A DNA stretch of 64,000 nt from Patescibacteria group bacterium. GTDB taxonomy: Bacteria; Patescibacteriota; Microgenomatia; UBA8517. The first letter of the stretch is position 1, and every line of letters begins with the position of its first letter. Location of the stretch: the NCBI GenBank assembly GCA_035260845.1, contig DATFUL010000002.1, positions 7,033 through 71,032 on the forward strand, given 5' to 3'. A program made the translations under genes and the position numbers. Shown one piece after another: positions 1 to 19,248 of the stretch. Under the pieces are notes generated by a model that worked only from the letters and a program-made list of their open reading frames with translations, did no database searches and was not told where the DNA came from.

Positions 1-300
1 CAATCAGCATTTAGTGACAGTTCTCCGGAACAGGCAATTGGCAAATTAATCCAACTTGTTATCTGGCTTCTTATTATTGGTGCATCTGTTTATGCACTGA
101 TTAACTTGGTTTTAGCAGGCTACTCTTTTATGGCTGCCGGGGACGACAGTAAAAAAGTCGCAGGGGCTTGGGCAATGATTTGGCAAACAATGTTGGGTTT
201 AGCAATTTCCGCAGGGGCTTTTGTACTGGCTGCGATTTTTGGACAATTAATTTTTGGGGACCCAACGTTTATACTTAATCCAACCATCCCACCACTTTAA
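1..300 (+). CDS. T4SS-type pilin paralog 1 (5'-truncated by window edge; TrbC/VirB2-like two-helix membrane protein)
   Basis: Frame 1 is open from position 1 with no upstream stop in the window. The translation ...LIQLVIWLLIIGASVYALINLVLAGYSFMAAGDDSKKVAGAWAMIWQTMLGLAISAGAFVLAAIF shows hydrophobic helix, a GD(D/K) loop, then a second hydrophobic helix. The four downstream paralogs have the same architecture. Stop TAA at 298-300. Confidence 0.55.
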   Translation, partial: QSAFSDSSPEQAIGKLIQLVIWLLIIGASVYALINLVLAGYSFMAAGDDSKKVAGAWAMIWQTMLGLAISAGAFVLAAIFGQLIFGDPTFILNPTIPPL

Positions 301-677
301 TGAATAATTTATTGACACAAGCACAGAGCGGTTTACAAATTGCACCAAAGGGTGGTTTTACTGGTTTTGGTCCTTTGGGAACTGCGGGAAGCAATGGCGT
401 AAGTGTATTTAGTAAATTTATTTCCTCTATTGTAGGACTAATGACCATAATTGCCATTATTTGGTTTGTGTTTACTTTTATAGCAGGTGCAATTGGTATA
501 ATTGGCGCTGGAAGCGATAAAAACGCACTAGAGGGTTCAAGAAAAAAGATTGTAAATGGAATAATTGGACTTGTAGTTACGGTTGCCGCAATCTTTATAA
601 TTAACTTAGTCGGCTACCTGCTAGGATTCAAAAATATTTTAGATATCGGAACTTTAATTAATTCTTTAAACAAATGA
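300..677 (+). CDS. T4SS-type pilin paralog 2 (TrbC/VirB2-like)
   Basis: 125 aa with the core IGAGSDKNALEGSRKKIVNGIIGLVVTVAAIFII flanked by TM helices. The motif is shared with neighbouring paralogs (GGDKGALEGARGKISSAIVG, GGDKGATEGARNQITAALVG). Start overlaps the previous stop (TAATG). Confidence 0.6.
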   Translation: MNNLLTQAQSGLQIAPKGGFTGFGPLGTAGSNGVSVFSKFISSIVGLMTIIAIIWFVFTFIAGAIGIIGAGSDKNALEGSRKKIVNGIIGLVVTVAAIFIINLVGYLLGFKNILDIGTLINSLNK

Positions 678-991
678 TTACAAATCCGGCTTTGGGTAAT
701 ATTGGCAAACAATCTGGTGTAGAGTTTTTTAAGAACTTTATTCCCGGTCTTATTGGGTTGGGTTTTGTAGCTGGAACAATCATATTTTTCTTTATCTTAA
801 TCATCGGAGCAATTCAGTGGATTACGGCCGGAGGGGATAAAGGAGCTTTAGAAGGTGCGCGCGGCAAAATCTCAAGCGCAATTGTTGGAATTATAATACT
901 CTTCTCACTTTTTGCGGTGCTTGATCTTATTCATATATTTTTCAATATTAAAATTATGACACTTGACATAGGCCCATTGGTAATTCGATAA
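674..991 (+). CDS. T4SS-type pilin paralog 3
   Basis: 105 aa with TM helix, AGGDKGALEGARGKISSAIVGIIILFSLF, then TM helix. ATGA start/stop overlap with the previous gene. Confidence 0.6.
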   Translation: MITNPALGNIGKQSGVEFFKNFIPGLIGLGFVAGTIIFFFILIIGAIQWITAGGDKGALEGARGKISSAIVGIIILFSLFAVLDLIHIFFNIKIMTLDIGPLVIR

Positions 992-998
992 TACATAT

Positions 999-1337
999 AT
1001 GCAAGCTCACCTCGCGCAAATTAATTTACAAAATTTAGGCCAAAACAATCAAAATTTTGGTTCTCTTACAACTCTTACTTTGCCTTCAATAATTTCCGGA
1101 ATGATTAGGGGTGCATTAGTAGTTGCAGCTGTAGTCTTTTTCTTTATTTTAGTTATTGGTGGAATTAAATGGATTGCTTCAGGTGGCGATAAAGGCGCCA
1201 CAGAAGGCGCAAGAAACCAAATAACTGCAGCTTTGGTAGGACTTGTAATAGTCTTTGCGGCTTGGGCTATAGTCCAGCTTATTCAAGTATTCTTTGGAGT
1301 TAATATCTTCAATCTTTCACTTCCGACCGCGGGCTAA
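999..1337 (+). CDS. T4SS-type pilin paralog 4
   Basis: 112 aa containing ...VVAAVVFFFILVIGGIKWIASGGDKGATEGARNQITAALVGLVIVFAAWAIV. Same two-helix topology. Confidence 0.6.
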   Translation: MQAHLAQINLQNLGQNNQNFGSLTTLTLPSIISGMIRGALVVAAVVFFFILVIGGIKWIASGGDKGATEGARNQITAALVGLVIVFAAWAIVQLIQVFFGVNIFNLSLPTAG

Positions 1338-5182: not shown

Positions 5183-6655
5183 ATGCCTGACGTGTTTAAA
5201 AAATTTCTGTTTTCATTTTTGGCTTTTTTAGTTGTTTTTACTTCTATTACTCCGAACTTTTTATCTGTTAAGGCTGCTAGTAATTCAGCAACGGATTCAG
5301 CTACCTCTACTGCAACTTGGTATAGCCCTGGTCTTTTTGAATTTTACAGTAAAGTATTTGACACAAGTAATAACGATATTTTTGGTGAAAGGTACACTTA
5401 TGCCCAAGTGGTTTGGATTATAGAATCACTTCCCCTTGCAATTTTAGGAATTAGCGCCAGCACTTTTCATGACATACTTCAACAGGTCCAATCAAACCCG
5501 AATGGTACAAGCGTTCTTTTAGACCAAGGTAATAGCCTTGCAAAAATCAATGATCCGTTTACTACAATAATTAGCCAATTTTATTCATCTCCACCTGCTT
5601 CTGGTAGATATTGGCTATCACAAAAAATAAATAACTTTAGTTTGGTTAAAAAAGCTTATGCAGCACCAGCCAACAGCTTTGGCTATTCATCCCTTTTAAT
5701 ATTTGAACCTCTTTGGAGTGCTTCACGCAATATTGCTTACACGTTAATAGTTTTAATTTTATTGGCAATTGCTTTCGCTGTAATGTTTAGGTTAAAAATT
5801 AGTCCCCAGGTGATTGTTACTGTCCAAAGTGCACTTCCAAAAATTGCAACTACGCTTATTTTAGTTACTTTCTCTTATGCGATTGTAGGATTTTTAATTG
5901 ATTTAATGTATTTAATTTTTGGAGCAATAGTCTACGGGATTGGGAACCAATCAGGTGTGTTGGCATCGGGTGTAAGTGCTCCAGATTTATTGAATAATTT
6001 TCTTAACGGAAACTTATTTACAAAAATATTTACGACAGCCGGTACCGGCGGAACTGTTGGAATTGTAGGAGTTGTTGTTGGGCTGATTGCTTTGGTTTTT
6101 ACACCAATAGGGCCGGCTATTATTCCTCTTGTTATAGGTATACTAATTGCTGGAATAATATTTTTTATAAAAACCTTTATTATGCTTGCTCAAACCTACC
6201 TGTCCCTTATTATGAACTTGGTGTTTGGGCCAATAATAATTTTGGCCGAAGCTATTCCATTTATTAAAGCATCGGCTGTGGACTGGATGAGATCGGTTAT
6301 TGCAGATATTTTAGTATTTCTTGCAGTAGGATTACTGTTCTTGGCCGAATCATTGATCAATGGAGCTTTAAGTACGACTGCAAGCACTCCACCCTGGAGC
6401 CCACCCTATTTGGGATTCAATGCCAATATTTTTAAGATAATGATTTGGGTTGGTGTTTGGTCAATCCTACCTAACATCAGATCTATTGTTTACAAAATGA
6501 TGGAGCGGTCAGCTGCAGAGATTCAGTTGCCAAGAGAATTTAGTAATCTGGGTGAAACCTTCCAACGTGGCCTTGGTGAATACACTGGAAATACACAGTT
6601 TAGAGATTCATTTAATAGATGGTTGTCAGGATTAAGAGGTCGTACAGGAACCTAA
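5183..6655 (+). CDS. polytopic membrane protein, VirB6/TrbL-like candidate
   Basis: 490 aa. Signal-like N-terminus (FLFSFLAFLVVFTSITPNFLSVKAAS) followed by at least 6 predicted TM helices (IAYTLIVLILLAIAFAVMF, IATTLILVTFSYAIVGFLIDLMYLIFGAIVYGI, VGIVGVVVGLIALVF, IIPLVIGILIAGIIFFI...). The call rests on position in the T4SS-like locus and topology only. Confidence 0.4.
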   Translation: MPDVFKKFLFSFLAFLVVFTSITPNFLSVKAASNSATDSATSTATWYSPGLFEFYSKVFDTSNNDIFGERYTYAQVVWIIESLPLAILGISASTFHDILQQVQSNPNGTSVLLDQGNSLAKINDPFTTIISQFYSSPPASGRYWLSQKINNFSLVKKAYAAPANSFGYSSLLIFEPLWSASRNIAYTLIVLILLAIAFAVMFRLKISPQVIVTVQSALPKIATTLILVTFSYAIVGFLIDLMYLIFGAIVYGIGNQSGVLASGVSAPDLLNNFLNGNLFTKIFTTAGTGGTVGIVGVVVGLIALVFTPIGPAIIPLVIGILIAGIIFFIKTFIMLAQTYLSLIMNLVFGPIIILAEAIPFIKASAVDWMRSVIADILVFLAVGLLFLAESLINGALSTTASTPPWSPPYLGFNANIFKIMIWVGVWSILPNIRSIVYKMMERSAAEIQLPREFSNLGETFQRGLGEYTGNTQFRDSFNRWLSGLRGRTGT

Positions 6656-6692: not shown

Positions 6693-9059
6693 TTACTTCT
6701 TCTTACCTATAAAGATCCCCACTTGTTTAGTTAGTCTTTTTTCTGCATCAGCTATAACTTCTCCATTTTTCGCAAGTGGCTTTGTAGTTCTAAATTTCTT
6801 GTTTTCGTCCTCAAAATTCTTGATTACTTCTTCCTCAGTTTTAGGATTGCCATCCGATACTGCTTGTATATTTATTTCAGCAATTCTTGCAGCCGATACA
6901 TCCTCTAGATTGTTTTGGCCAAGATCTGGGTTAAACAATTTAACCACACTATTCAAAACATTGGTTGCAAAAGAGGCACTTTTAATCCTAGCCGCGTTCA
7001 TGTTGTCAAAGACATTTTTAACAACAATTTTATCTTTATCATCACTTATGTCGTATTTGTGCATGGACCCTTTGGTAAGTGTCAAAACATTGTAAACAAT
7101 ATTAAAGTATTTCCACATCTTCTTGAGTCCATTCAATGAGAAATCTTCTAATCTAAAATCAACCTTTATTAAAGCGTCTAGAACACCCCTTTCGTCTCTT
7201 CCAGAAAGCCATTGAATTAGGTCAAAGTTGCCATGAAAATCCCTTTGAAGAGACTCAAAGTTTAAATCTCCCAATCTGTTATACGGTTCTTCTGGAATTT
7301 CTATATTCGTAGGCTCCCCAGTTAAGAGATTTGTTCTAACTCCAGCCGCTGTTCCAAGCCAGGCATCAAAAAGAGATCTTGTTCTTATTTTATCATTACC
7401 CTCACTATCTTTGTCCATTATCTCTTTTCCATCTTCATTAAGCATAGCCACTTGGGAAAAGTCCATAAGGCTTGTAGCCATATCGGGAATTCTACCAATT
7501 AGATCCTTTAGGCCGGAAGGCCTACCGGCAAGGCCCTCTTTAAGGTTCCATAGGTAAACAAGAAACTTTCCAAGATCGTCTGAGGATATAAACTGTCCTT
7601 CCCCAAGTGCCAAAGCAAACTCTCCGTTTTCAAAATACACATAACCTTCAGAGGAGTAAACTCCAGCAGCTCTTAAAAAGGTAGCCGCCAACCATGAAGC
7701 CTCATCAATACTTTCGACTTTTCCTTTACGGTCGATTTTACCTGTACCAACAAGCTCACCTATATACTTTATAAACCCATTTTCCTTCTTAAGGTTCAGT
7801 TTCCCCCTGCCTGCAATATTTCCAAGCTCTGTTACTGGACCTCTTAATTTTTGTATTTTTTCAACTCCATTCTTGATAACTTTATTGGGAGTTTCTACAT
7901 ACTCAACAATTTTTCCCTTTTCATCTTTTCTCGGAACAAAACGTATACCCCGGTTCTCTTGATCTAATGTTTCTGTTATGATCACTTTACCCGTCTTTTC
8001 ATTCTTAACTGGTTTTAGAGTTCTATCAATAGATTTGGTCCATTTTTTCCAATCGCCCAATTGTTCTTTAAGAAATTCCCAAGCTTCATCATATTTCAAA
8101 CCCCTTCTCTCCATTAAGCGTTTAATCATTAATCCCTCTGTTGCCGGTTTATTGATAAATGCCTGCATTTGTTCAGGTGTCTCACTATTAAGCATGGCCA
8201 GATTCCACCATATTGCTTCTTCTATTTGATCACCAAGTTCGTGTAAACGCTTACCTTCTTTGTTGTGTATTGCCTTTTCACGCACAAGTTCTTTTTCGGA
8301 GGGTAAATTTAAAAATTCCTCAATATGTTCGACTCTAAGTTTAGAGGCACCAAGGTGATTTGATTCGGTAAGCCCATTTAAATCATCCCTAAAACGAAGT
8401 CTAATTCCTATTCTCGAATCCAAAATTATCCTAGATTCAAATTCCAATATACCTCTTTCGTAAGCGTTGGCCAATTCTGTTCTATCTTCATCAGTTCCAT
8501 AATTGTATTCAGTTTTATATCCAACCACCTGGCCATTCATCCGAATATCCTTCTGATCAACCGATAGGGCTGTGGATCCAAATTTAGCTTTTCTGGGCTC
8601 TCCAATACCAGTATTTGGATCATAAGATTCAAGCCAACCCCTTTCTTTTAGATCTTCAATTGTCATATTTAAAACTTCAGCTCTATCAATCATTACATCC
8701 AGAACTCTTGTGGGTGTGTAATGGTCAGCCAACTCGCGGGGAATCGTTCCACTCTCAATCCTAGCTTCAAACTTTCTTAAACCGTAGTAAAACTCAGATG
8801 GATATTCAGCATTTGTAATCATTTCCATCCTAAGAGACTCACCACCTCTATACTGCCTACTGTTTGCTTCTTCTAATTGTGGGTCGCCCTCGGGTTCCTT
8901 CTTTTTCCCGGCTGGGTTTGCCATAAATTCTTTAGCTCCAAGCAAATCATTATTCTGTTGTCCTTGTCTTTCGTAATGCCGAGGTTGACTACCCTTGTCT
9001 ATTCCAAAACTGGGATCTTGAGGAGTACCAAATTCATTATTAAAAGGATTATCCGCCAT
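6693..9059 (-). CDS. large hypothetical cytoplasmic protein (about 790 aa) of unknown function
   Basis: Long ORF on the minus strand. The ORF track starts at 9209, but the first 50 residues are low-complexity, so an internal start MADNPFNNEFG at 9059 is preferred. No signal peptide, no Walker A, no HUH motif and no recognisable domain. It is charged and K/E-rich. Confidence 0.6.
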   Translation of the reverse strand: MADNPFNNEFGTPQDPSFGIDKGSQPRHYERQGQQNNDLLGAKEFMANPAGKKKEPEGDPQLEEANSRQYRGGESLRMEMITNAEYPSEFYYGLRKFEARIESGTIPRELADHYTPTRVLDVMIDRAEVLNMTIEDLKERGWLESYDPNTGIGEPRKAKFGSTALSVDQKDIRMNGQVVGYKTEYNYGTDEDRTELANAYERGILEFESRIILDSRIGIRLRFRDDLNGLTESNHLGASKLRVEHIEEFLNLPSEKELVREKAIHNKEGKRLHELGDQIEEAIWWNLAMLNSETPEQMQAFINKPATEGLMIKRLMERRGLKYDEAWEFLKEQLGDWKKWTKSIDRTLKPVKNEKTGKVIITETLDQENRGIRFVPRKDEKGKIVEYVETPNKVIKNGVEKIQKLRGPVTELGNIAGRGKLNLKKENGFIKYIGELVGTGKIDRKGKVESIDEASWLAATFLRAAGVYSSEGYVYFENGEFALALGEGQFISSDDLGKFLVYLWNLKEGLAGRPSGLKDLIGRIPDMATSLMDFSQVAMLNEDGKEIMDKDSEGNDKIRTRSLFDAWLGTAAGVRTNLLTGEPTNIEIPEEPYNRLGDLNFESLQRDFHGNFDLIQWLSGRDERGVLDALIKVDFRLEDFSLNGLKKMWKYFNIVYNVLTLTKGSMHKYDISDDKDKIVVKNVFDNMNAARIKSASFATNVLNSVVKLFNPDLGQNNLEDVSAARIAEINIQAVSDGNPKTEEEVIKNFEDENKKFRTTKPLAKNGEVIADAEKRLTKQVGIFIGKKK

Positions 9060-9305
9060 ACAAAAATTGTAGCACAAAATAGACATGGAGAGTATTGAGT
9101 GGGTTGTGCATAAAAACTTGACTATGGGCCGAAAAAGTCCTACACTCGCGAGCAAGATGGGAAAAGAAAATCCAAAAGGCCTCTTTCGCAAACTCCTTGC
9201 TGCTTCCAACTCTGAAAAAGCGAAGAGTGAGGCTCTAGCTTTAGACGAATTAAAAAAAGAGATCTCGAAGATAAACGCCTCATATCAGAGTTTGACAATC
9301 GAATA

Positions 9306-9815
9306 GTGCCAGATTTGAAAAGAGCAAAAATGGAATTTTTACAACGGGGGCAAGTGCCGGCAGTTTTAGAGCTTTTCAACGATGTTGTTTTAGCTATTGA
9401 ACAAAAAGAGGGAGGAAGAAAACTGGAAAGAAGTGCTAAATTTTCTATTGAATTCTTGGGAGATATTGATAAAAACGATAATTTGTATGCAAACACGGTA
9501 AAATCCAGTTTCGTTCGTTTTTTACATGGCGAATCCGTAAATCAAATAGATGAACTTATAAAAAAGTTTACTGTAGAAATTCACGGTGATAGAACCAATG
9601 ATTCTTATGTTGAGTTTGGAATCTCAGTTTTTCCCGATAATACTTTTGGTTATTCATTTGGTGGTGCATATAATTATAGCGATAGAGCAACTAAAAAAAC
9701 TTTAGACAAAACAAATCTTGAGGTTTTTGCAGAAGATTTGGTAAGTGTTGTTACGAATAGAAAATATATGTATATAATATCACCAGGTCCTTATTTGGAC
9801 TTGAGTGGGCCGTAG
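9306..9815 (+). CDS. hypothetical protein
   Basis: 169-aa ORF with GTG start (alternative ATG at 9330). No recognisable motifs. A 73-aa ORF at 9085..9306 immediately upstream may be co-transcribed or spurious. Confidence 0.4.
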   Translation: MPDLKRAKMEFLQRGQVPAVLELFNDVVLAIEQKEGGRKLERSAKFSIEFLGDIDKNDNLYANTVKSSFVRFLHGESVNQIDELIKKFTVEIHGDRTNDSYVEFGISVFPDNTFGYSFGGAYNYSDRATKKTLDKTNLEVFAEDLVSVVTNRKYMYIISPGPYLDLSGP

Positions 9816-9910: not shown

Positions 9911-10954
9911 ATGGAACAACACGCCATACCGCAAAACGTATCTTCGTACCAATTTAAGTTGGTTGGGGACATGACTCTTAAGCAATTTTTTCAACTCGCT
10001 GGTGGAATTTTGGTTGCAATTATTATTTACTCTCTACCACTTTTAGGAATTATTAAGTGGCCTTTTGCAATTCTTTCTGTTCTACTTGGTATTGGCCTTG
10101 CTTTCTTGCCACTTGAAGAACGGCCTTTAGAAAAATGGATATTTGCATTTTTTAGAGCTATTTATGCACCAACTATTTTTTCCTGGCAAAAAGCCGCAAC
10201 TCCTCCCAAATTTTTTCAGGACGAAAGCCCAACTAGTAGTACTCCACAGCAAGATTTGGCACTTAAAAGTTATTTGGGCACAACCGCTCAAGTATCGGGA
10301 GCGCTAGGAAACTTGGAAAAAGCTGAAAATGGATTTTTAGCAAAACTTACCGCACTCTTTTCTGGAATTGTTAATCCTACTCCCGCTACTCAAATTACCC
10401 CTGCCGCTACTCTTGTTCCGGAAAAATCAAAGGAGATGCAAATTCCGGAAACCCAGCCCATAAGAATTCAAGCTAATGCAACACATTTGGTGGTTGAAGA
10501 AAAACCAACTATTCAAACGGTTCAAAGTGAGCTTTCAACAAGCCAGGTTGCACCAATTATTGCAGGGAATGAGATGATTTCTACAAAACAAGCAATGTTT
10601 TCAATTGATGCGGCCCCTCCAAGCCCGCCCAGTCAACCCAATGTTGTAGTTGGCCAAATAGTTGATCAGGATAGGAAAATCGTAGAAGGCGCAATTATGG
10701 AAATTAGAGACTCAATGGGACGCCCAATAAGGGCCTTAAGAAGTAATCGAGCCGGACATTTTATTACGGTTACACAGCTAGATAATGGCCATTACGAAAT
10801 AATTACCGAGAAAGATGGTTATGAATTCGCTGCAGTTAGTTTTGACGCCAACGGCAACTTAATTCCGCCAATTTTGGTTCAAGGAAAACGAATTGCACCA
10901 ATAATTGAACCGGTACCTACCGGAATTGTTAAACCTGCATATTCTATTAACTAA
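9911..10954 (+). CDS. PrgI/VirB3-like membrane protein fused to a C-terminal CarboxypepD_reg-like beta-sandwich domain
   Basis: N-terminus MEQHAIPQNVSSYQFKLVGDMTLKQFFQLAGGILVAIIIYSLPLLGIIKWPFAILSVLLGIGLAFLPLEERPLEKWIFAFFRAI has the PrgI-family pattern: a short tail, the F-K-vG-lTlrQf segment and two TM helices. C-terminus VVGQIVDQDRKIVEGAIMEIRDSMGRPIRALRSNRAGHFITVTQLDNGHYEIITEKDGYEF resembles a carboxypeptidase-regulatory-like domain. It sits directly upstream of VirB4. Confidence 0.5.
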   Translation: MEQHAIPQNVSSYQFKLVGDMTLKQFFQLAGGILVAIIIYSLPLLGIIKWPFAILSVLLGIGLAFLPLEERPLEKWIFAFFRAIYAPTIFSWQKAATPPKFFQDESPTSSTPQQDLALKSYLGTTAQVSGALGNLEKAENGFLAKLTALFSGIVNPTPATQITPAATLVPEKSKEMQIPETQPIRIQANATHLVVEEKPTIQTVQSELSTSQVAPIIAGNEMISTKQAMFSIDAAPPSPPSQPNVVVGQIVDQDRKIVEGAIMEIRDSMGRPIRALRSNRAGHFITVTQLDNGHYEIITEKDGYEFAAVSFDANGNLIPPILVQGKRIAPIIEPVPTGIVKPAYSIN

Positions 10955-10956
10955 AC

Positions 10957-11661
10957 ATGAAGAATTCCTTAACATCTTTAAAAATCCCCAAAATTCCATA
11001 CCTGTCGGTTCCGGATGCACCAATCACTTCAACTACTCAAAGTCATTTACCCATAGCTGACGTCACAAACGACATTGTTATCTATAAAGACGGTGGGGCG
11101 GCGCTTGTTATGGAGTCGACTTCTTTAAACTTTGGACTCTTAAGCGAAAAGGAACAGGCTGCTGTTATTGCCGCCTATGCTGCAATGATTAATTCTCTTT
11201 CTTTTTCTATACAAATTATGGTTCGCACCCAAAGGAAAGATATAAGTAACTATATAACCTACATTGACGAAGAAGCTAAAAAATTAACTCACCCACTACT
11301 ACAAAAGCTTATGGGTGAATACAGGGCCTTTATAATGGACTCGGTTAAAAAGAAAAATGTTCTTGGAAAAAGATTTTATGTGGTTCTTTACCTATCGCCT
11401 CTTGAGCTTGGGGTTGGCAAATCAATTGCGGCAGTCACCAAACGCGGAATCACTCTCCCCTTTACCAAGTCTTACGTAATCAAAAAAGCCAAAATCACTC
11501 TTTATCCAAGACGCGATCATTTAATGCGCCAGGCTGGCCGACTTGGAATTAAATTTAGACAACTTACAACTCGTGAGTTAACTGATTTGTTTTATTCAAT
11601 CTATAACCCCGAGCATCCAGCGGTTAAAAAAGAGCCAGAAGTGATTCTTGAACACAAATGA
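10957..11661 (+). CDS. VirB4/TrbE/PrgJ-family ATPase, N-terminal domain fragment (split gene, part 1)
   Basis: 234 aa. IADVTNDIVIYKDGGAALVMESTSLNFGLLSEKEQAAVIAAYAAMINSLSFSIQIMVRT matches the N-terminal CagE/TrbE/VirB4 domain. The stop overlaps the next ORF start as ATGA. Confidence 0.6.
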   Translation: MKNSLTSLKIPKIPYLSVPDAPITSTTQSHLPIADVTNDIVIYKDGGAALVMESTSLNFGLLSEKEQAAVIAAYAAMINSLSFSIQIMVRTQRKDISNYITYIDEEAKKLTHPLLQKLMGEYRAFIMDSVKKKNVLGKRFYVVLYLSPLELGVGKSIAAVTKRGITLPFTKSYVIKKAKITLYPRRDHLMRQAGRLGIKFRQLTTRELTDLFYSIYNPEHPAVKKEPEVILEHK

Positions 11662-13463
11662 AACCAGACCAACCAACTAACCAACCGACAGTTCAACAAC
11701 AAGGCAAACCTAAAATCGGAAGTCCAAATATCGCTGTTTCCCAAGGATTAAACGTACTGGATGTTGTTGCCCCGCAATCCATCGAGGAAGATTTTGACTA
11801 TTTTAAAATAAACGACGTTTATTTTAGAACAATTTTTATTGGCGGCTATCCAAGATTTGTGGCCCCGGGTTGGCTTGAACCAGTTGTTAATTTTGATTCC
11901 TCCTTAGACATTTCTTTTTACGTTTATCCGGTTGACGGTAAAACCGTGCTTGATGACCTGAGACGCAAAATTGCAGAAATGGAGGCCGAGCTTTCGACCG
12001 ACATTGAGCGCGGCAGAATTGTTGACCCCTCAACTCAAGCAAAACTGGAAGACGCCAGAAATTTGCAAGAACAACTTGTTAAGGGAATCGAAAGATTTTA
12101 TGAATTTAGTTTCTACATTACAATCCCAGCAAATTCAGTTGAAGAACTAAACCATGTAACCAAGCAGATTGAGTCACAACTTGGTTCACTTTTAATTGTT
12201 AGTAAGCATGCGCTACTCGACCAAGAATCCGGGTTTTTGTCCACTGCCCCATTTGGAATAGACAGGCTAAACATTACAAGAAACATGGATACAACCTCTG
12301 TTGCCACAACTTTTCCATTAACTTCAACTGAACTATCTAGTGACCGCGGGGTTCTTTACGGAATAAATTCACAAAATGAATCTTTTATTATTTTTGACCG
12401 TTTTTCTTTGGAAAACGCAAATATGACTATTTTTGCTACAAGCGGTGCCGGAAAATCTTACTTTGTTAAACTCGAAGCCGTTCGTTCTTTAATGACTGGA
12501 ACAGAAGTAATAATAATTGACCCGGAAAGTGAATATAAACCCTTAGCACAGGCTGTTGGGGGTGAATATATTTCTTTTTCCTTTAATTCCCCTGCCAAAA
12601 TTAATCCGTTTGATTTAGCTCAAATTAGAGAAGAGGGTGAAAACCAGCTTGGACAAAAGATTCTTTCACTCCATTCTCTAATGAAGGTTATTATGGGAAC
12701 AATCTCCCCCACCCAAGAGGCCTTACTTGACCGTGCACTTGTCATGACTTACAGGAACAAAGGCATAACCATGGATCCAGACACCCAGGGCAAAGAACCG
12801 CCCCTAATGGAAGACTTGTATAAAACTTTAATTGGCATGGAAGTACCAGATGCTTTGGACCTTGCAGCAAGAATTGAAAAATTTGTCAGAGGTTCGTTTG
12901 TTGGTATTTTTGATAAACAAACAAACATAAACATCACAAATCCGTTTACTGTTTTTTCGGTTAAAGATTTGCAGGATGTTCTAAGGCCCATCGCCATGTT
13001 TATAATCCTAGACTACATTTGGACGAGAGTTAAAAAAGACCTCAAGAAACGCATCTTAATCGCCGAGGAGGCCTGGCAAATGATGAAGTACCCAGATACA
13101 GCCCAATTTTTATGGAGTGTCGTTAAAAGGGCTAGGAAATATTATTTAGGTTTAACAACGATTACTCAGGATGTGGAAGACTTTTTGGGCCAAGATATTG
13201 GTAAAGCAATTGTCACCAACAGTGCCATGCAGGTGCTTCTTAAACAGTCCCCAGCTGCAATCGATAAAATCGGGGAAATATTTTACTTAAGCCAGGGGGA
13301 AAAACAGTTACTCTTAGCAGCAAACGTTGGTGAGGGAATATTTTTTGCAGGCCCGCACCATGCTCCAATTAGGGTTGTTGCATCTGAGGATGAAAACAAA
13401 CTAATTACAACCAAACCACAAGAAATTGCAAAGATAAGTCCAAACGCATATGAAGCAAAATAA
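11658..13463 (+). CDS. VirB4/TrbE/PrgJ-family T4SS ATPase, C-terminal ATPase domain (split gene, part 2)
   Basis: 601 aa. Walker A MTIFATSGAGKSYFVKLE. Walker B/DEAW-type RILIAEEAWQMMKY. Conserved GLTTITQ and sensor region typical of the VirB4 C-terminal domain. Confidence 0.85.
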   Translation: MKPDQPTNQPTVQQQGKPKIGSPNIAVSQGLNVLDVVAPQSIEEDFDYFKINDVYFRTIFIGGYPRFVAPGWLEPVVNFDSSLDISFYVYPVDGKTVLDDLRRKIAEMEAELSTDIERGRIVDPSTQAKLEDARNLQEQLVKGIERFYEFSFYITIPANSVEELNHVTKQIESQLGSLLIVSKHALLDQESGFLSTAPFGIDRLNITRNMDTTSVATTFPLTSTELSSDRGVLYGINSQNESFIIFDRFSLENANMTIFATSGAGKSYFVKLEAVRSLMTGTEVIIIDPESEYKPLAQAVGGEYISFSFNSPAKINPFDLAQIREEGENQLGQKILSLHSLMKVIMGTISPTQEALLDRALVMTYRNKGITMDPDTQGKEPPLMEDLYKTLIGMEVPDALDLAARIEKFVRGSFVGIFDKQTNINITNPFTVFSVKDLQDVLRPIAMFIILDYIWTRVKKDLKKRILIAEEAWQMMKYPDTAQFLWSVVKRARKYYLGLTTITQDVEDFLGQDIGKAIVTNSAMQVLLKQSPAAIDKIGEIFYLSQGEKQLLLAANVGEGIFFAGPHHAPIRVVASEDENKLITTKPQEIAKISPNAYEAK

Positions 13464-15975
13464 AAATCCGCCTTCGGACTTTAATTTTCAAAAAACCACA
13501 GAGTTAATTGAGGCTCTACAGATAATGCTGCCCAAAAAGCTTGGCCTAAGTGATGTTTTGGCAAAAAAAACTCTTAAAACAGATTATTTTTCTTGGAAAA
13601 ACCCCGAACAACTAGAAAAATATACTCTCGAAGTAACGGGTGAGGACAATATTAAATATGCCGAAAGACGTCTAGTTCAGTGGCAAGAAGAGCTTGCTGA
13701 AACTTCCGCAAAAATCGTTGAGCCGCCAAAGACTGTTGTCGAAGCCAGTCTTCCCAATAAAGGTTTAAGAGAACAGCAACAAGCAGATGTAGAAAGGGCT
13801 GAGGCGCAAACTATCGAAAGAGAAGAAAGAATTGGAGTCAAACTCCAAGCCGAACTTGATGCCAAAGTAAAAGCCGCTGCTAACGCAAAAATAATAAGGG
13901 AGTTTAAAGAATCAGTTAAAAATAAAAATGTTTACGCAAAAGTTAAAGAGGCTAACGAGTCCCTACTTAGCCAAGATGACGAAGTTAAAATTAACAATTT
14001 AAAGTCAGAGGCAAAAATAGATCCAGACGGCTTAACAGCACAGGTTGCAGCCGATATAAAAAGCCGCCTTGAACAAGTTGGTGTTCAGGGAGATATAGAT
14101 GGTGCATCGGAATTAACTGCTCAAAATATGGTAGCCGTTTTGGGAGGAAATTCCCCACTAATCGAAGCCGTTATTGCTAAACAGTCAGTTGATAAAGGAA
14201 TGCTTGGGGCTGCGGGAGAGTTTGGGGCCGCACAAAATATAGTTAAAGATTATTCACAGTATCAAGTTGAGAGTTTTATGTTTAGTAAAAACATTGCTGA
14301 AGTCGCTTTCGGTAAAGATGGTAAGGGAATTACGGATCGAATTTTTTCTACTCCTGAATCTATACAAGTTGCAAATATTCCCACCGAAGGCTTTACCCCG
14401 TATGCAGTATCAAAACTAATCAACTCTGAGCCTACAGTCATAGTAAACACTTCTGATTTAGGAACCGGATCTAGTCAGCCAATTTTTATTAATCGTGTAA
14501 GTAGACCGCATTTTGAAGCAAGTTCTCGCCAAACAGACAGATTCGATTTTAGATCCCAAATGTCTTCTTTTAAACCTAGTCCGAGCACCAAGTCCGTAAA
14601 CATAAATGCTCAGAAAATTGGCACACCAAAGATTTCTATTTCAACGGCTCCACTAAGACAGGCTGCTTCTGGAATAACAAAGGTTTTTGCTGATCTTTTT
14701 TCTAAAGGCAAAATTGCAATTAAAGGCTTGGAAAATAGCCAAGGAGGGTTAATTGTTGGTGGAATTGCCGTGGCGGTTGCAGGAATAACTTCGGGTAGTG
14801 CACTTTTAACATCGGTTGGCTTTGGTAGTACTGCTGCCGGTTTTGTTGTAAATCCCGGTAGAGCTCTTAGTGGATCCGCTTTTGGCAATGTTGTTGCACC
14901 AATCTTGGGATTCTTTCATTCGGTTATGAATTTTGTACTTGAAGGGATTGTTCTACCTATCATCCTAGCTGTTCTTTGTGTTCCACTTTTAATAGCACTT
15001 TTTCTTTTTATAATAAATTCGGGTGCCTTAATTGTTCCACCCGGTCAGTCAACTTTAAGTAGCACAAATCCATACATCGAGGTTCGAAAGGTTCCTAACC
15101 CCGGAGGCCAACTTGGGTCGCCGCAAGCAATAACCTATACAATTACAGTCACCGCAAAAAAGGATCTTCTTACTAGGATAAGTTTTAAAACAGATTGCAA
15201 AGCAATCAAAAAAAGTGGCCCTAGTATTGATTGTAGTTCGCTTGAAAAAATTGCTACATCAACAGCCTCGATTGCACCCGGATCACCTTTTTCTTTCAAC
15301 TTTACATCAAACTACGATGCTAAATATCAAGATTCTCTTGTTTCAGACACTATCACAGTTTCTGCAGAGTCTAACGAGGGTGGAAAACTTTCGGAAACAG
15401 GCTCTGCATCGGTTTGTTTTGGAAAATGCCCTCTAAATTGTTTTGATTTTTCCAGCCCGACCTGGAGCTCTGTGCCTAATTTACAATCAAACCTAACCCA
15501 AGCCGCCGCCCAACTTGCATCTCAATACCCAAACTTTGCAGCCAAGGTTTGTGGAGGCGGAACGGTTAAACTTTGTTACACTACAAGTAATCCGACTCCT
15601 GTGGGTAAAGCTGGTATCTGCAATCAAGCAACTTACGCCAAAGATGTGGAACAAAAAGATTGTAATATCAACTTCAATCAGTGTGGAATTAAGTCGACCA
15701 GTGATGCACTGTTTATACTTACGCACGAAACAACTCACCATATTCAAATAATCAATAAAGGGTCTGAGAGGTTGTTTGAACAAAACGTACCACAATCAGA
15801 ATGGCCAATCTGCACATACGGCCTCACTGGAAGTAATCCTTATGAAAGTCAAGCTGAGGGAGATGCTTTGTTTGTGAATCAACACCCATCGTGGGCTTCA
15901 TCTTGTGTTACAAATTACGCAGTACAATACCCTAAACATTACAATTTTGCAAAGAATGTAATGTTTGGACCATAA
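13450..15975 (+). CDS. large T4SS-associated membrane protein (PrgK/TcpG position) with C-terminal HExxH metallopeptidase-like motif
   Basis: 841 aa. N-terminal roughly 440 aa is charged and coiled-coil-like (QQQADVERAEAQTIEREERIGVKLQAELDAKVKAAANAKI). A TM cluster follows (GGIAVAVAGITSG...VLPIILAVLCVPLLIALFLFIINS). C-terminal Cys-rich domain contains LTHETTHHIQ (HExxH) at about nt 15724-15738. Function is inferred from synteny with Gram-positive T4SS hydrolase genes. Confidence 0.45.
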   Translation: MKQNKNPPSDFNFQKTTELIEALQIMLPKKLGLSDVLAKKTLKTDYFSWKNPEQLEKYTLEVTGEDNIKYAERRLVQWQEELAETSAKIVEPPKTVVEASLPNKGLREQQQADVERAEAQTIEREERIGVKLQAELDAKVKAAANAKIIREFKESVKNKNVYAKVKEANESLLSQDDEVKINNLKSEAKIDPDGLTAQVAADIKSRLEQVGVQGDIDGASELTAQNMVAVLGGNSPLIEAVIAKQSVDKGMLGAAGEFGAAQNIVKDYSQYQVESFMFSKNIAEVAFGKDGKGITDRIFSTPESIQVANIPTEGFTPYAVSKLINSEPTVIVNTSDLGTGSSQPIFINRVSRPHFEASSRQTDRFDFRSQMSSFKPSPSTKSVNINAQKIGTPKISISTAPLRQAASGITKVFADLFSKGKIAIKGLENSQGGLIVGGIAVAVAGITSGSALLTSVGFGSTAAGFVVNPGRALSGSAFGNVVAPILGFFHSVMNFVLEGIVLPIILAVLCVPLLIALFLFIINSGALIVPPGQSTLSSTNPYIEVRKVPNPGGQLGSPQAITYTITVTAKKDLLTRISFKTDCKAIKKSGPSIDCSSLEKIATSTASIAPGSPFSFNFTSNYDAKYQDSLVSDTITVSAESNEGGKLSETGSASVCFGKCPLNCFDFSSPTWSSVPNLQSNLTQAAAQLASQYPNFAAKVCGGGTVKLCYTTSNPTPVGKAGICNQATYAKDVEQKDCNINFNQCGIKSTSDALFILTHETTHHIQIINKGSERLFEQNVPQSEWPICTYGLTGSNPYESQAEGDALFVNQHPSWASSCVTNYAVQYPKHYNFAKNVMFGP

Positions 15976-15984
15976 TATAGTTAA

Positions 15985-16569
15985 ATGAAAAAATTAACAG
16001 GTTTCATAAAAAAATATTGGATATTAATCATGTTGGTCTTAGCAGGAATTCTTTATGTAATTAACTTTTTTTTAAAAGGTCCAATCTCACCAGTAACACC
16101 AACTCCTACACCAATTAATAAAATCGCAGCATTTGGTTCGCTTATTCCTGGTGTAAGTAATGAAAACGATGTTTTGAATGTTTTAGGCCGTCCGATTGAC
16201 ACAAAAACTGAAAATGGACTAGTAACTTCTCAATATAAATCTACCAATCAGTACAGATTTAACAAAGTAATTTTCACAAATGGTACAACTAAATTAATAA
16301 AGGAGATTGTCAATTCAAACGATAACAAAGACGCGAGTTCAATAACTAGTATTTACGGGGCGCCCCAATACACACTTTATGAAAAATTATCGAACAGTGT
16401 TTTTAATTTATACGTATATCCCCAAAATGGGATAGCTTATCTTGGTGCAACAGATGGGACACTAAAAGAGATTTGGTATTTCGAACCCACTACGATAGAC
16501 AACTTCATCAAAGATTGGGGGCAGGATTTTGCAACAACTCCGGTTGGTGAAAAAGACAGTGCTTATTAA
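15985..16569 (+). CDS. small bitopic membrane protein (PrgL/VirB8-like position)
   Basis: 194 aa with one N-terminal TM (YWILIMLVLAGILYVINFFL) then a soluble domain. It is the last gene of the VirB4 operon. Assignment is by size, topology and synteny only. Confidence 0.35.
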   Translation: MKKLTGFIKKYWILIMLVLAGILYVINFFLKGPISPVTPTPTPINKIAAFGSLIPGVSNENDVLNVLGRPIDTKTENGLVTSQYKSTNQYRFNKVIFTNGTTKLIKEIVNSNDNKDASSITSIYGAPQYTLYEKLSNSVFNLYVYPQNGIAYLGATDGTLKEIWYFEPTTIDNFIKDWGQDFATTPVGEKDSAY

Positions 16570-17678
16570 GATTGAACTCTAACTGGCATTATCAAGTGAA
16601 GATAATTTGAATCCGAAGAATCTGTAAACACCCCTGCTTTATCGGTTGTAGTAAATTCCATTTTTACTTCCTCACCACTTACAGAGTGCAAAAATTCCTC
16701 AAGAAATCGGTAATTAAAAGCAATTTCAAAATCTTTCACCTCTCCGTCAATTTTAGCCTCGACCTGAGTCTCCTGACTACCCGAGTTGCTGCTTTCCGCA
16801 AAAACTTTCACGGAATTCTTATCTAATTTGAGTTTTACAACATTTGCCGCTTCCCTAGCGAATATTGAGGCTAGTTTTACCGCTCTTAAGAACTCCTCTT
16901 TGTCTAATCTAACTGTGATTGTTGAACTTTTGGGTATAATCTTTTCAAAATCTGGGTACTCTCCTTCCAGAAGTCTCGAAGAAAGAACAATGTCACCTAG
17001 TCCAAAAATAACTTGTTTTTCTTTCTCTTGTATCTCAAATTGGAATTCTGAAACGTCTTCCAAAGATCTTCCAAGCTCCCCAAGTACCCCTTTAGGAATT
17101 ACAATTTTCTGCTCCACCAGGTCTTTTTTATTTTTTAAGGCTATTTTCTTTCTTGATAGCCTAAAGCCGTCGGTTGCAACAATAGTTAATCCTTCTTTAT
17201 CCAAAACAAAAAGGACTCCTGTTAAAACCGGCCTTGTTTCATCTGCACTTGCAGCAAAAACTACTTGAGAAAGTGATTCCAATATTTCTTTTTTAGGCAA
17301 ACTTAAAGGTTTTACAACTGATTCCGGTATTTTTGGGAAGTCGGTTGCATTCATTCCTAATACTTTTGATGTAAAACCAGATGTTTCAATTTTAAGTTGT
17401 TCTTTTTCTGATTCCAAAGTTACATTTTCTTTTGGAAGATTACTCACAAGTTCAGATATTACTTTTGAGGGAATGCTTATCTCCCCTTCACTTTCTATTT
17501 TTGCGCCTATTTGTATTAGAACTGATATTTCAAGATTTGTTGAACTTATGTTGAGTTTTGTTTTTGTAGCTTTTAGTAGAATGTTTCCGAGTATTGGTAA
17601 TTGAGATCTTGTACTGGCAAACCTTGAAGCTTGAGTTATCGCTTTTGTTAAATTTTCCTGTAAAACCGTTAATTTCAT
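16566..17678 (-). CDS. dnaN: DNA polymerase III beta sliding clamp
   Basis: 370 aa. MKLTVLQENLTKAITQASRFASTRSQLPILGNILLKA... has three-domain length and pattern. Position is immediately downstream of dnaA. Confidence 0.9.
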   Translation of the reverse strand: MKLTVLQENLTKAITQASRFASTRSQLPILGNILLKATKTKLNISSTNLEISVLIQIGAKIESEGEISIPSKVISELVSNLPKENVTLESEKEQLKIETSGFTSKVLGMNATDFPKIPESVVKPLSLPKKEILESLSQVVFAASADETRPVLTGVLFVLDKEGLTIVATDGFRLSRKKIALKNKKDLVEQKIVIPKGVLGELGRSLEDVSEFQFEIQEKEKQVIFGLGDIVLSSRLLEGEYPDFEKIIPKSSTITVRLDKEEFLRAVKLASIFAREAANVVKLKLDKNSVKVFAESSNSGSQETQVEAKIDGEVKDFEIAFNYRFLEEFLHSVSGEEVKMEFTTTDKAGVFTDSSDSNYLHLIMPVRVQS

Positions 17679-17868
17679 ATTGTGTTAGTTATTATATATT
17701 AACTAGTAGTACTAGTAGTAGAGACGGTTGATAAGTTTATAAAACTCACTGTTTGGGTTTACCTTTCGGATAATATTAGTGTTGATACTAGCCTCAGTAA
17801 ATTGTTCATAACTTTGTGTATAAATATACGCAATCTGTTGATAAGTGCATAAGTATCTAAAATTATCC
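17679..17868. promoter_or_regulatory. dnaA-dnaN intergenic region with degenerate DnaA boxes and AT-rich stretch; candidate oriC / DNA unwinding element
   Basis: AGTGCATAA (about 17844-17852; 8/9 to TGTGNATAA). TTATCCTCA (about 17862-17870; 8/9 to TTATCCACA). GGATAAT (about 17768). Tandem ACTAGTAGT repeats and an AT-rich run TTATTATATATTAACTAG. Confidence 0.5.
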
Positions 17869-19248
17869 TCAAAGTGTGTTTTTTATCTTCAACATATCCT
17901 CACGAATATGCACATCTGTTGTGGCTAGTTGTGTAATTTTATTCACAGCATGCATGACAGTTGAATGGTCGCGGTTTCCAACTAGCCTACCAACTTCCTC
18001 AAAGGCAATTCCAAGCTGGGTCCTAAGGAGATACATCAGCATTTGTCGGGGGCGGGCAACTTGGCGTGCTCTGGTGTCACTTAATATCAACCTTTTTCCT
18101 ATTTGATAGTATTTACAAACAGCCTCGATAGTTTGTTCTGGTGTACTTCTTGATGCTTTTCCATTTATTTCCTCCTTATGGCTTAGAGCTCCTTCGACTA
18201 AGTCTTTTGTAATAGGTAGTTTTTTAAGATGAACTTCGTTCATTATTTTTATTAAAACCCCCTCAATGTTCCTTGCACCTTCGGTATTGGCAGCAATCAT
18301 CTGTATTTGATCCATCTCCAGTGGAATTTTTCTTTCTTGAGACTTGATCTGTACAATTGCACATTTGAGCTCAAAGTCAGGTGGGGAAACGTCTACTATT
18401 AAACCCGCCTCAAAACGGCTTCTTAAACGGTCTTCAAGCTTAAATATTTCAGAAGGAGGCTTGTCAGCGGTCATTATTACCTGTCCCCCAGCCGAGGTCA
18501 CGGCATTGAAAGTATGAAAGAATTCTTCTTGTGCAGTTTCCTTACCTGCAATAAACTGAATGTCGTCGACCATTAAGAGGTTTAGTTTCCTGTATTTTTT
18601 CCTGACTTCGGGCGTGGTTTTGTTGCGGATCCCGTCAATTATGTCGTTCGTAAAGTCCTCGGCTGTACATGATAAAACCAAACTGTGTGGATCCCGAAGC
18701 AATGTAGAATGCCCAACAGCCTGCATAAGATGGGTTTTGCCAACTCCGACCCCACCCCAGATAAATAATGGGTTGTATGCCGTTCCCAAGCTTTCAGAAA
18801 CAGCCAATGCTGCTGCGTGGGCCATTTGATTACTTCCCGAAACTGCAAAATTCTCAAAAGTAAAACTTGGTTTAATCCGTGACGTTCTAAGAACCTCGAT
18901 AAACTCTCTATCATCCTTTTTATTTTCAAATAACGGCGCTTCGGTTTCCTTACTTGGCTCAACTTTATCTAAGTTCTCTTTTACTATAAAAGTGACATCA
19001 CACGTTTTACCCACCACCTTATTCAAAGAGTCTTGGATTAAACCAAAATATCTTGATTCTATTGTGTTTTTGGCAAAAGAGGTCGGACAGCCAATTTCAA
19101 CAACTACCCTGTCCCCCACCTCATTTAAGCTTGCAATATGCGTTTTTGAAAACCAGGTAGAAAATATAGCCGGAGACACAGAAACTTTAATTATTTCTAA
19201 AGTGTCTTTCCAGGAAGTTTTTGGATCTATATTCATTGTTAATAACAA
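17869..19248 (-). CDS. dnaA: chromosomal replication initiator protein DnaA
   Basis: 459 aa. Walker A GGVGVGKTHLMQAVGH. Walker B LLMVDDIQFIAGKETAQEEFFHTFNA. C-terminal DNA-binding domain ...LSDTRARQVARPRQMLMYLLRTQLGIAFEEVGRLVGNRDHSTVMHA. Confidence 0.95.
   Translation of the reverse strand: MLLTMNIDPKTSWKDTLEIIKVSVSPAIFSTWFSKTHIASLNEVGDRVVVEIGCPTSFAKNTIESRYFGLIQDSLNKVVGKTCDVTFIVKENLDKVEPSKETEAPLFENKKDDREFIEVLRTSRIKPSFTFENFAVSGSNQMAHAAALAVSESLGTAYNPLFIWGGVGVGKTHLMQAVGHSTLLRDPHSLVLSCTAEDFTNDIIDGIRNKTTPEVRKKYRKLNLLMVDDIQFIAGKETAQEEFFHTFNAVTSAGGQVIMTADKPPSEIFKLEDRLRSRFEAGLIVDVSPPDFELKCAIVQIKSQERKIPLEMDQIQMIAANTEGARNIEGVLIKIMNEVHLKKLPITKDLVEGALSHKEEINGKASRSTPEQTIEAVCKYYQIGKRLILSDTRARQVARPRQMLMYLLRTQLGIAFEEVGRLVGNRDHSTVMHAVNKITQLATTDVHIREDMLKIKNTL

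Follow-up and report, generated by a model that had tools for sequence, protein, structure and literature searches.

Among the VirB1-type wall hydrolases of monoderm type IV secretion systems (T4SSs) are PrgK of pCF10, TraG of pIP501, CwlT of ICEBs1 and TcpG of pCW3. In Patescibacteria, the T4SSs are MPF_FATA-like, usually come without a relaxase and often adjoin dnaA and dnaN (Quinonero-Coronel et al. 2025, PMC12102498). The same study found few VirB1 homologues, mostly unassociated with virB4, and only rare VirB8 homologues, and it considers that other enzymes may fill the VirB1 role. The system is essential for epibiotic growth in the sole species tested. Here we describe a protein of 841 amino acids (aa), p841, as a specific protein that could fill the VirB1 slot of Woesebacteria-type genomes. 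It is encoded in a stretch of 64,000 nucleotides (nt), hereafter the window, from a Patescibacteria group bacterium (assembly GCA_035260845.1, contig DATFUL010000002.1, positions 7,033 to 71,032). The window is a piece of Patescibacteria (Woesebacteria-like) chromosome with a T4SS adjoining dnaN and dnaA, a layout that matches and by which we identify the locus with the T4SS of the cited study. We propose that p841 is probably a membrane-anchored wall-remodelling subunit in the VirB1/PrgK slot of this chromosomal, monoderm-type system. New here are a probable T4SS wall hydrolase built on a new zincin family and the joint replacement of enzyme and partner beside a very conserved VirB4.

The p841 gene is an open reading frame (ORF) at 13450..15975 on the plus strand. 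It follows virB4 directly, its ATG start overlapping the virB4 stop by 14 nt, and this position fits a prgH/I/J/K/L-like gene order. The protein exactly matches a hypothetical protein from a Patescibacteria metagenome-assembled genome. An initial annotation, made from the letters of the window, had pointed to a zincin-like HExxH motif in its Cys-rich C-terminal part, and the sequence reads exactly so: HETTH (H759, E760, H763), inside LTHETTHHIQ, lies at 15724..15738 (+) and is the sole HExxH of p841, against a chance expectation of 0.0034 for one such motif. Twelve of the 13 cysteines fall within aa 583-819, and there are only seven histidines.

The motif belongs to a gluzincin-like metallopeptidase domain of ~186 residues (aa 656-841; 15415..15972, +) that has no Pfam family. 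Its homologues were collected by an exhaustive phmmer search with aa 420-841, a word-indexed search with the full-length protein being swamped by low-complexity words of the N-terminal region. At E <= 1e-3 the family comprises 460 representative clusters (50% identity), of which 133 reach E <= 1e-30; its members are mostly ~800-1000 aa long, with the matching region at their C-terminal end. HExxH is found in 131 of the 150 best representatives, which is every one that aligns over the C-terminal domain (131/131). No such orthologue lacks the motif, a lack that would have refuted the initial annotation: the other 19 align only to the membrane region and to the β-sandwich that follows it (query residues 1-~260).

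We aligned the zincin part of 133 members, selected by H759, E760 and H763, which are for that reason 100% conserved. Mean column identity over the domain is ~35%. Against this background Y790 (15817..15819, +) is kept in 128/133 sequences; it is the counterpart of the oxyanion-hole Tyr178 of PPEP-1. The motif E799-S-Q-A-E803 (ExxAE; 15844..15858, +) is similarly preserved, with E799 in 132/133, E803 in 130/133 and A802 in 108/133. E799, 36 residues after H763, is the predicted third zinc ligand and the counterpart of PPEP-1 Glu185. Cysteines C664 (133/133), C701 (132/133) and C788 (128/133) are almost as constant. On these patterns, HETTH is the true active-site motif of a zincin, conserved under strong constraint and accompanied downstream by a putative Glu third ligand and a Tyr of the catalytic type.

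A comparison of aa 540-841 with known folds, proposed along with the initial annotation, was carried out on an AlphaFold2 (AF2) model (mean predicted local distance difference test, pLDDT, 90.7), in which an all-β sandwich (aa 540-~655) precedes an α/β domain. Since Foldseek returned only sandwich matches and no zincin with this two-domain model, the zincin domain was modelled alone (aa 652-841; pLDDT 90.4, predicted template-modelling score 0.89). The domain model begins with three helices, which are followed by a small sheet, by the active-site helix bearing HExxH and by a helical subdomain. HETTH lies within a predicted helix (residues 99-117 of the model), Y790 belongs to a loop, and E799 is placed where a further predicted helix (146-158) starts. 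The same order of elements is described for PPEPs, as is the oxyanion-hole role of PPEP-1 Tyr178 (PMC12828418).

With the isolated domain, the eight top Foldseek matches in the PDB were all PPEP-1/Zmp1 (E ~0.02, probability 0.99, template-modelling score 0.50, ~205 columns). A Bacteroides putative zinc peptidase came next, with nothing credible beyond, and a search of viral folds in BFVD gave only weak, generic zincin matches. A profile of the domain against PDB sequences likewise ranked PPEP-1 first (E = 0.0024, 21 bits), followed by anthrax lethal factor (LF; 0.19), PPEP-2 (0.43) and minigluzincins (~0.5). The profile alignments pair HExxH, Y790 and E799-x-x-A-E803 with the catalytic residues of PPEP-1 (EEFFAES) and LF (EAEFFAEA); the LF counterpart of E799 is Glu735. 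Pfam and NCBIfam yielded nothing above threshold for the domain, only sub-threshold SprT-like, eCIS_core, M64, M91 and Mx1 matches, and no M34 model appears among the Pfam matches of 30 members at E <= 1. Judging from sequence profile and predicted fold, the domain is a putative gluzincin of an unclassified family, with the M34 peptidases as its nearest solved, and distant, relatives; we do not assign it to M34.

The strongest support for a hydrolase in this position, as the initial annotation had read it, comes from the 19 representatives without HExxH: within one and the same machine, a common scaffold bears either a zincin or an M23 or CHAP domain. Eight of the 19 bear a C-terminal Peptidase_M23 domain above the Pfam cut-off (P0096, P0128, P0131, P0134, P0135, P0136, P0140 and P0147), four more match it weakly, one (P0062) ends in a CHAP domain and six have no recognised C-terminal domain. 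P0128 (MCX6703970.1), from Woesebacteria, is named 'peptidoglycan DD-metalloendopeptidase family protein' at NCBI. In p841, searches of Pfam and NCBIfam found no SLT, muramidase, CHAP, LytM/M23 or NlpC/P60 domain. With M23 or CHAP on the same scaffold in positional orthologues, the initial annotation's idea of another hydrolase chemistry in this slot has good grounds.

The genomic surroundings of these forms were compared in 14 further loci (L001-L014). p841-type genes directly follow virB4 in L001-L007, L013 and L014, and the order PrgI-TrsD-VirB4-p841-p194-dnaN-dnaA is kept in these nine zincin-type loci. Genes of the M23 and CHAP forms likewise stand between virB4 and dnaN, in the slot that p841 has in the window. 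In M23 loci, PrgI, a TraC/TrsD-like protein and VirB4 precede the slot gene, and a Chisholmbacteria locus (L008) has the M23 form too. Downstream of the slot gene come a bitopic protein and dnaN in L009, L010 and L012, with dnaA also present in L009 and L012; L011 breaks off behind its bitopic gene. Between M23-type and zincin-type loci, VirB4 identity amounts to 76-96%, and a neighbour-joining tree interleaves the two types. The sharpest case is L011 (M23) against L007 (zincin): the VirB4 proteins are 96% identical, whereas the slot proteins share 30% identity over aa 1-767 and are unrelated beyond. Within the zincin type, the slot ectodomain is 31-66% identical to its orthologues, compared with 80-91% for VirB4.

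The catalytic domain does not change alone. Nine nt downstream of p841 lies the gene of a 194-aa bitopic protein, p194 (15985..16569, +), in a position equivalent to that of prgL. It has one N-terminal transmembrane (TM) helix, a Pro/Thr linker and a ~145-aa ectodomain, and 23 close homologues. A p194-family gene stands downstream of the enzyme in all ten zincin-type loci, the window included (E 1e-44 to 1e-81), and this pairing holds for zincin domains down to 31% identity. The four M23-type loci (L008, L009, L011, L012) carry there a mutually homologous family of ~330-346 aa, and the single CHAP-type locus (L010) a 210-aa Big_5 protein. These partners resemble p194 in the N-terminal TM only, and the p194 family is absent from their loci. 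Thus the gene after the enzyme is always bitopic, and its ectodomain follows the catalytic type, also between loci whose VirB4 proteins share 96% identity. Since unrelated proteins take the place of p194 in every locus with another catalytic domain, the hydrolase and its downstream partner act as a single unit that evolves quickly and can be exchanged, next to a strongly conserved VirB4. As a side observation, a small gene pair, including a faint AbiEii-like toxin, is found between the partner gene and dnaN in the CHAP-type locus (L010, 3954-4882, -).

We read p194 as the probable type-specific partner of the zincin enzyme. The initial annotation had placed it in the VirB8/PrgL size class, a reading based on size, topology and position; its bitopic, N-in layout holds, and the VirB8 identity lacks support without being disproved. 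Among all PDB sequences, the profile built from 27 members met no VirB8, PrgL, TraM or TcpC chain at E <= 10, nor is a VirB8 family among the Pfam matches of these members. VirB8-like proteins tend to escape sequence searches (PMC12102498). The replacement of the ectodomain in M23 and CHAP loci, unexpected for a generic scaffold subunit, also speaks against the VirB8 reading. The BamE family (PF04355) is matched by 15/27 members (best E = 1.6e-4), DUF4309 by 3/27 and DUF3862 by 1/27; the BamE matches that were inspected cover residues ~43-94 and score 12.6-15.4 bits, below the 23.2-bit cut-off. A tandem BamE/BLIP-like repeat in p194 was considered and dropped, hhalign between the two halves being not significant (probability 0.3).

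A bolder reading would make hydrolase and bitopic gene a two-gene 'wall-breaching cassette', tuned to the wall or surface of the host, exchanged and evolving far faster than the remaining T4SS. The partner would then regulate, inhibit or target its cognate enzyme instead of serving as a VirB8 scaffold, and the cassette would be a host-range determinant of Patescibacteria. Three versions were seen, in which the zincin goes with a BamE-like protein, M23 with one of ~340 aa and CHAP with a Big_5 protein. We hold this reading to be doubtful as a whole.

The remainder of p841 suggests how the enzyme may be carried. Its first ~430 residues (13450..14739, +) form a charged, hydrophilic, helical region, E/K/A/Q-rich and devoid of signal peptide or hydrophobic segment, that is probably cytoplasmic. 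This part is only 20-27% identical to orthologues whose VirB4 is 80-91% identical, and it has no Pfam or PDB match beyond weak PDB hits hinting at a coiled coil. The membrane region (14740..15030, +) was delimited from the hydropathy profile and the homologue alignment. The cluster of TM helices seen there by the initial annotation reduces to a single strongly hydrophobic TM (aa ~497-527; 14938-15030; Kyte-Doolittle up to 3.07), preceded by a Gly/Ala/Ser-rich, weakly hydrophobic stretch (aa ~430-495; Kyte-Doolittle <= 1.67). The strong TM ends in a family-wide motif, FIINSGA(Y/L)(I/V)VPP (134 family members). Next comes the β-sandwich (aa 540-655; 15067..15414, +), DUF7507/DUF11/CARDB-like and all-β in the AF2 model, with a pLDDT of ~90-97 here. 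Its Foldseek matches include Spo0M, RhoGDI, arrestin and CARDB-type domains, Pfam recognises DUF7507 in 12/30 members, and it holds an invariant Cys pair (C583 and C595).

The C-terminal domain is probably outside the cell. Consistent with this, conserved Cys columns (C583/C595, C664/C701, C788/C819) are found among the 12 cysteines, the sandwich is of a surface type, a single strong TM occurs without signal peptide, and the M23 and CHAP equivalents share the arrangement. One or three membrane passes would both lead to this topology.

We propose the following mechanism. The fast-evolving N-terminal region would stay in the cytoplasm, tied to the VirB4 complex. The one strong TM, after the Gly-rich membrane-associated stretch, would lead out of the cell, where the disulfide-containing β-sandwich may serve as a spacer that holds the enzyme at the height of the wall. 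At the tip would sit a 186-aa zinc endopeptidase, distantly related to the M34 peptidases (PPEP-1, anthrax lethal factor). H759, H763 and E799 would bind a presumed zinc ion, E760 act as general base and Y790 stabilise the oxyanion. The enzyme most likely would cut peptide bonds of the wall (stem peptides, cross-links) or wall-bound proteins. Such a local opening could let the T4SS channel and a VirB2-like pilus through the cell's own wall, possibly also that of the host. The job would equal that done in sister loci by M23 or CHAP, borne there by the same scaffold, with the 194-aa bitopic protein as type-specific partner.

Several points weigh against a wall-remodelling role. We know of no wall hydrolase associated with a T4SS machine that has an HExxH zincin. 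The likeness to M34 is weak (template-modelling score 0.50, 14% identity, E 0.002-0.02), with no Pfam match above threshold, and the substrates of the nearest solved relatives, PPEP-1 and lethal factor, are proteins instead of peptidoglycan. As for the anchor, the Gly-rich stretch could add passes, and the Lys/Arg counts flanking the last TM do not discriminate (0.92 before it, 1.17 behind it). Finally, the LytM and CHAP domains of pCF10 PrgK are reported to be regulatory rather than active wall-degrading domains (review PMC12857230), so that equivalence with M23 or CHAP is no proof of wall cleavage.

Because the solved relatives cut proteins, it stays credible, if unlikely, that the zincin is a protein-directed protease that processes or releases surface proteins, and not a peptidoglycan hydrolase. 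Its substrates could be the leader-bearing VirB2-like pilins, surface parts of the T4SS, the cell's own wall-anchored or surface-layer (S-layer) proteins, or proteins on the surface of the host where the epibiont touches it. PPEP-1 indeed releases wall-anchored adhesins and LF cleaves mitogen-activated protein kinase kinases. Moreover, the three pilins encoded upstream have ~30-aa N-terminal extensions with no obvious dedicated leader peptidase in the cluster, and an ectodomain that evolves so much faster than VirB4 is what would be expected if it met variable partners. However, sister loci with nearly identical VirB4 carry M23 or CHAP instead, folds directed at peptidoglycan, and a pilin-processing step would then go missing in them.

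Wall remodelling by p841 itself can also be set against a mainly non-catalytic, regulatory wall-binding role of the zincin, with another enzyme cutting the wall. In PrgK it is the middle muramidase domain that is active while LytM and CHAP seem regulatory (PMC12857230), and the cluster does encode a large secreted protein without assigned function, of 908 aa (2414-5140). Searches of Pfam and the PDB gave no sign of a hydrolase in that protein, and H, E, H, Y and E are kept at 96-100% in 133 diverged members of the p841 family, with ~35% column identity. This conservation, typical of an active enzyme, weakens the regulatory alternative, which we consider improbable. Least credible of all is a cytoplasmic C-terminal domain, acting as intracellular regulatory or quality-control protease of the T4SS after an even number of passes: as many as four hydrophobic or Gly-rich segments may be distinguished in aa 430-527 and the positive-inside count is indecisive, but only the last segment is strongly hydrophobic, the 12 cysteines with their conserved paired columns and the surface-type sandwich speak for the outside, and M23 and CHAP domains follow the same TM anchor motif in orthologues.

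The rest of the cluster is that of a T4SS. It includes three tandem VirB2-like pilin genes (300..1337, +), two of them recognised by the Pfam T4SS_pilin family (PF18895; E = 3.4e-8 for the ORF at 999-1337 and 4.3e-4 for that at 300-677) and the middle one by its two-TM layout. Inside the cluster lies a gene for a four-helix-bundle protein of the 23S_rRNA_IVP family (PF05635; 1771-2358, -). Its position varies by genome (1729-2112 in L004; 939-1340 in L012, between PrgI-like and TrsD-like genes). The 908-aa protein, secreted and very Cys-rich, is encoded on the plus strand between the pilin array and a 490-aa polytopic protein (5183-6655), a possible VirB6 analogue. It belongs to no family found in Pfam or by PDB sequence searches; an SLT-like 'GEG' motif had been suspected by eye, unsupported by either. 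In L009, the equivalent position is held by an 879-aa gene product.

A large hydrophilic protein of 838 aa, without Pfam match, is divergently oriented within the cluster (6693-9209, -); its true start may be an internal MADNPF... Homologues occur in L003, L005 and L007, and large minus-strand genes at the same position in L008, L009 and L011. Between this gene and the PrgI-like one, a 169-aa ORF with a GTG start (9306-9815, +) has a homologue in none of the eight loci L001-L008, and may be lineage-specific or not a gene.

A 347-aa PrgI/VirB3-like protein follows (9911-10954, +; Pfam PrgI E = 1.4e-6). After a Pro/Thr/Gln-rich linker, it ends in a CarboxypepD_reg-like β-sandwich (sub-threshold, E = 0.0016), an extension unusual in VirB3-type proteins and kept in orthologues of 346-380 aa. 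Next to it are encoded a TrsD-like VirB4 N-domain protein (10957-11661, +; NCBIfam TrsD E = 3.8e-6) and the VirB4-type T4SS ATPase (11658-13463, +; NCBIfam conju_CD1110 E = 6.9e-111, Pfam P-loop_TraG 1.3e-29). In two relatives, the VirB4 gene product reaches ~1190 aa (L013, 207-3794; L004, 4420-7995) instead of the usual ~600-650. That of L013 carries Intein_splicing and LAGLIDADG_3 domains, and thus an intein interrupts the T4SS ATPase there; VirB4 of the window has none.

Downstream of p194 lie the convergent dnaN and dnaA, then rnpA, yidD, yidC and jag. VirB4 is 80-91% identical to its Woesebacteria orthologues in L001-L007 and L014, whereas in these same loci DnaA reaches 58-68%, DnaN 49-64% and YidC 59-74% (window 16566-19248 in the comparison). 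The T4SS ATPase is therefore more conserved than the core replication proteins.

As a candidate for the VirB1 role, p841 would represent a new zinc-endopeptidase family on a conserved scaffold, apparently interchangeable with M23 or CHAP, each with its own partner. It can serve as a marker in the annotation of hundreds of proteins that lack a name and, evolving faster than any other part of a machine that is otherwise very conserved, is a candidate determinant of host specificity. In full-text searches, we met no paper in which an enzyme with HExxH or of PPEP type is connected with a machine slot of a T4SS or with Woesebacteria.

Compared with known enzymes, the domain is closest to PPEP-1/Zmp1 of Clostridioides difficile, its best and almost sole match by both fold and profile. 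It shares with PPEP-1 and with anthrax LF (MEROPS M34) the HExxH helix, the downstream Tyr and the Glu in E-x-x-A-E. With PPEP-1 it further has in common the succession of helices, small sheet, active-site helix and helical C-subdomain, and, if our topology is right, the condition of an extracytoplasmic enzyme of a monoderm cell. Unlike PPEP-1, the domain has extra conserved cysteines and is joined in one protein to a sandwich, to a membrane anchor and to a long, probably cytoplasmic part; its gene belongs to a T4SS operon. Known PPEPs are secreted or wall-bound and reported only from Clostridiales and Bacillales (PMC8610288).

By its predicted architecture, p841 resembles PrgK and TraG, which also combine an N-terminal cytoplasmic part, a membrane anchor and one or more predicted extracellular catalytic modules; the M23 and CHAP domains of its positional orthologues occur in PrgK and TraG as well. 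It departs from that type by its HExxH gluzincin module, the lack of a glycosidase domain, the β-sandwich spacer and the ~430-aa N-terminal part. Nearest of all by genomic context are the M23-type orthologues of Woesebacteria and Chisholmbacteria, with the same slot, TM anchor motif and sandwich, and VirB4 up to 96% identical. They differ in their catalytic fold and their ~330-346-aa partner, and even the shared part is only ~30% identical.

In Ca. Southlakia epibionticum (Saccharimonadia), which belongs to another class of Patescibacteria than the window genome, peptidase and lysozyme homologues directly follow virB4 (PMC12102498). Its wall-hydrolase-type genes are reported there, with reference to Wang et al. 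2023, to be essential for epibiotic growth. An HExxH or zinc-peptidase component is not mentioned in PMC12102498, and the word 'peptidase' is absent from the main text of the Cell paper. Finally, among the X-Tfe effectors of bacteria-killing Xanthomonadales T4SSs, an HExxH putative metalloprotease is described in the context of attack on bacterial envelopes (PMC6536674). X-Tfe proteins are secreted toxins of diderm systems that bear an XVIPCD signal, in contrast to p841, the membrane-anchored product of a conserved gene of the machine itself.

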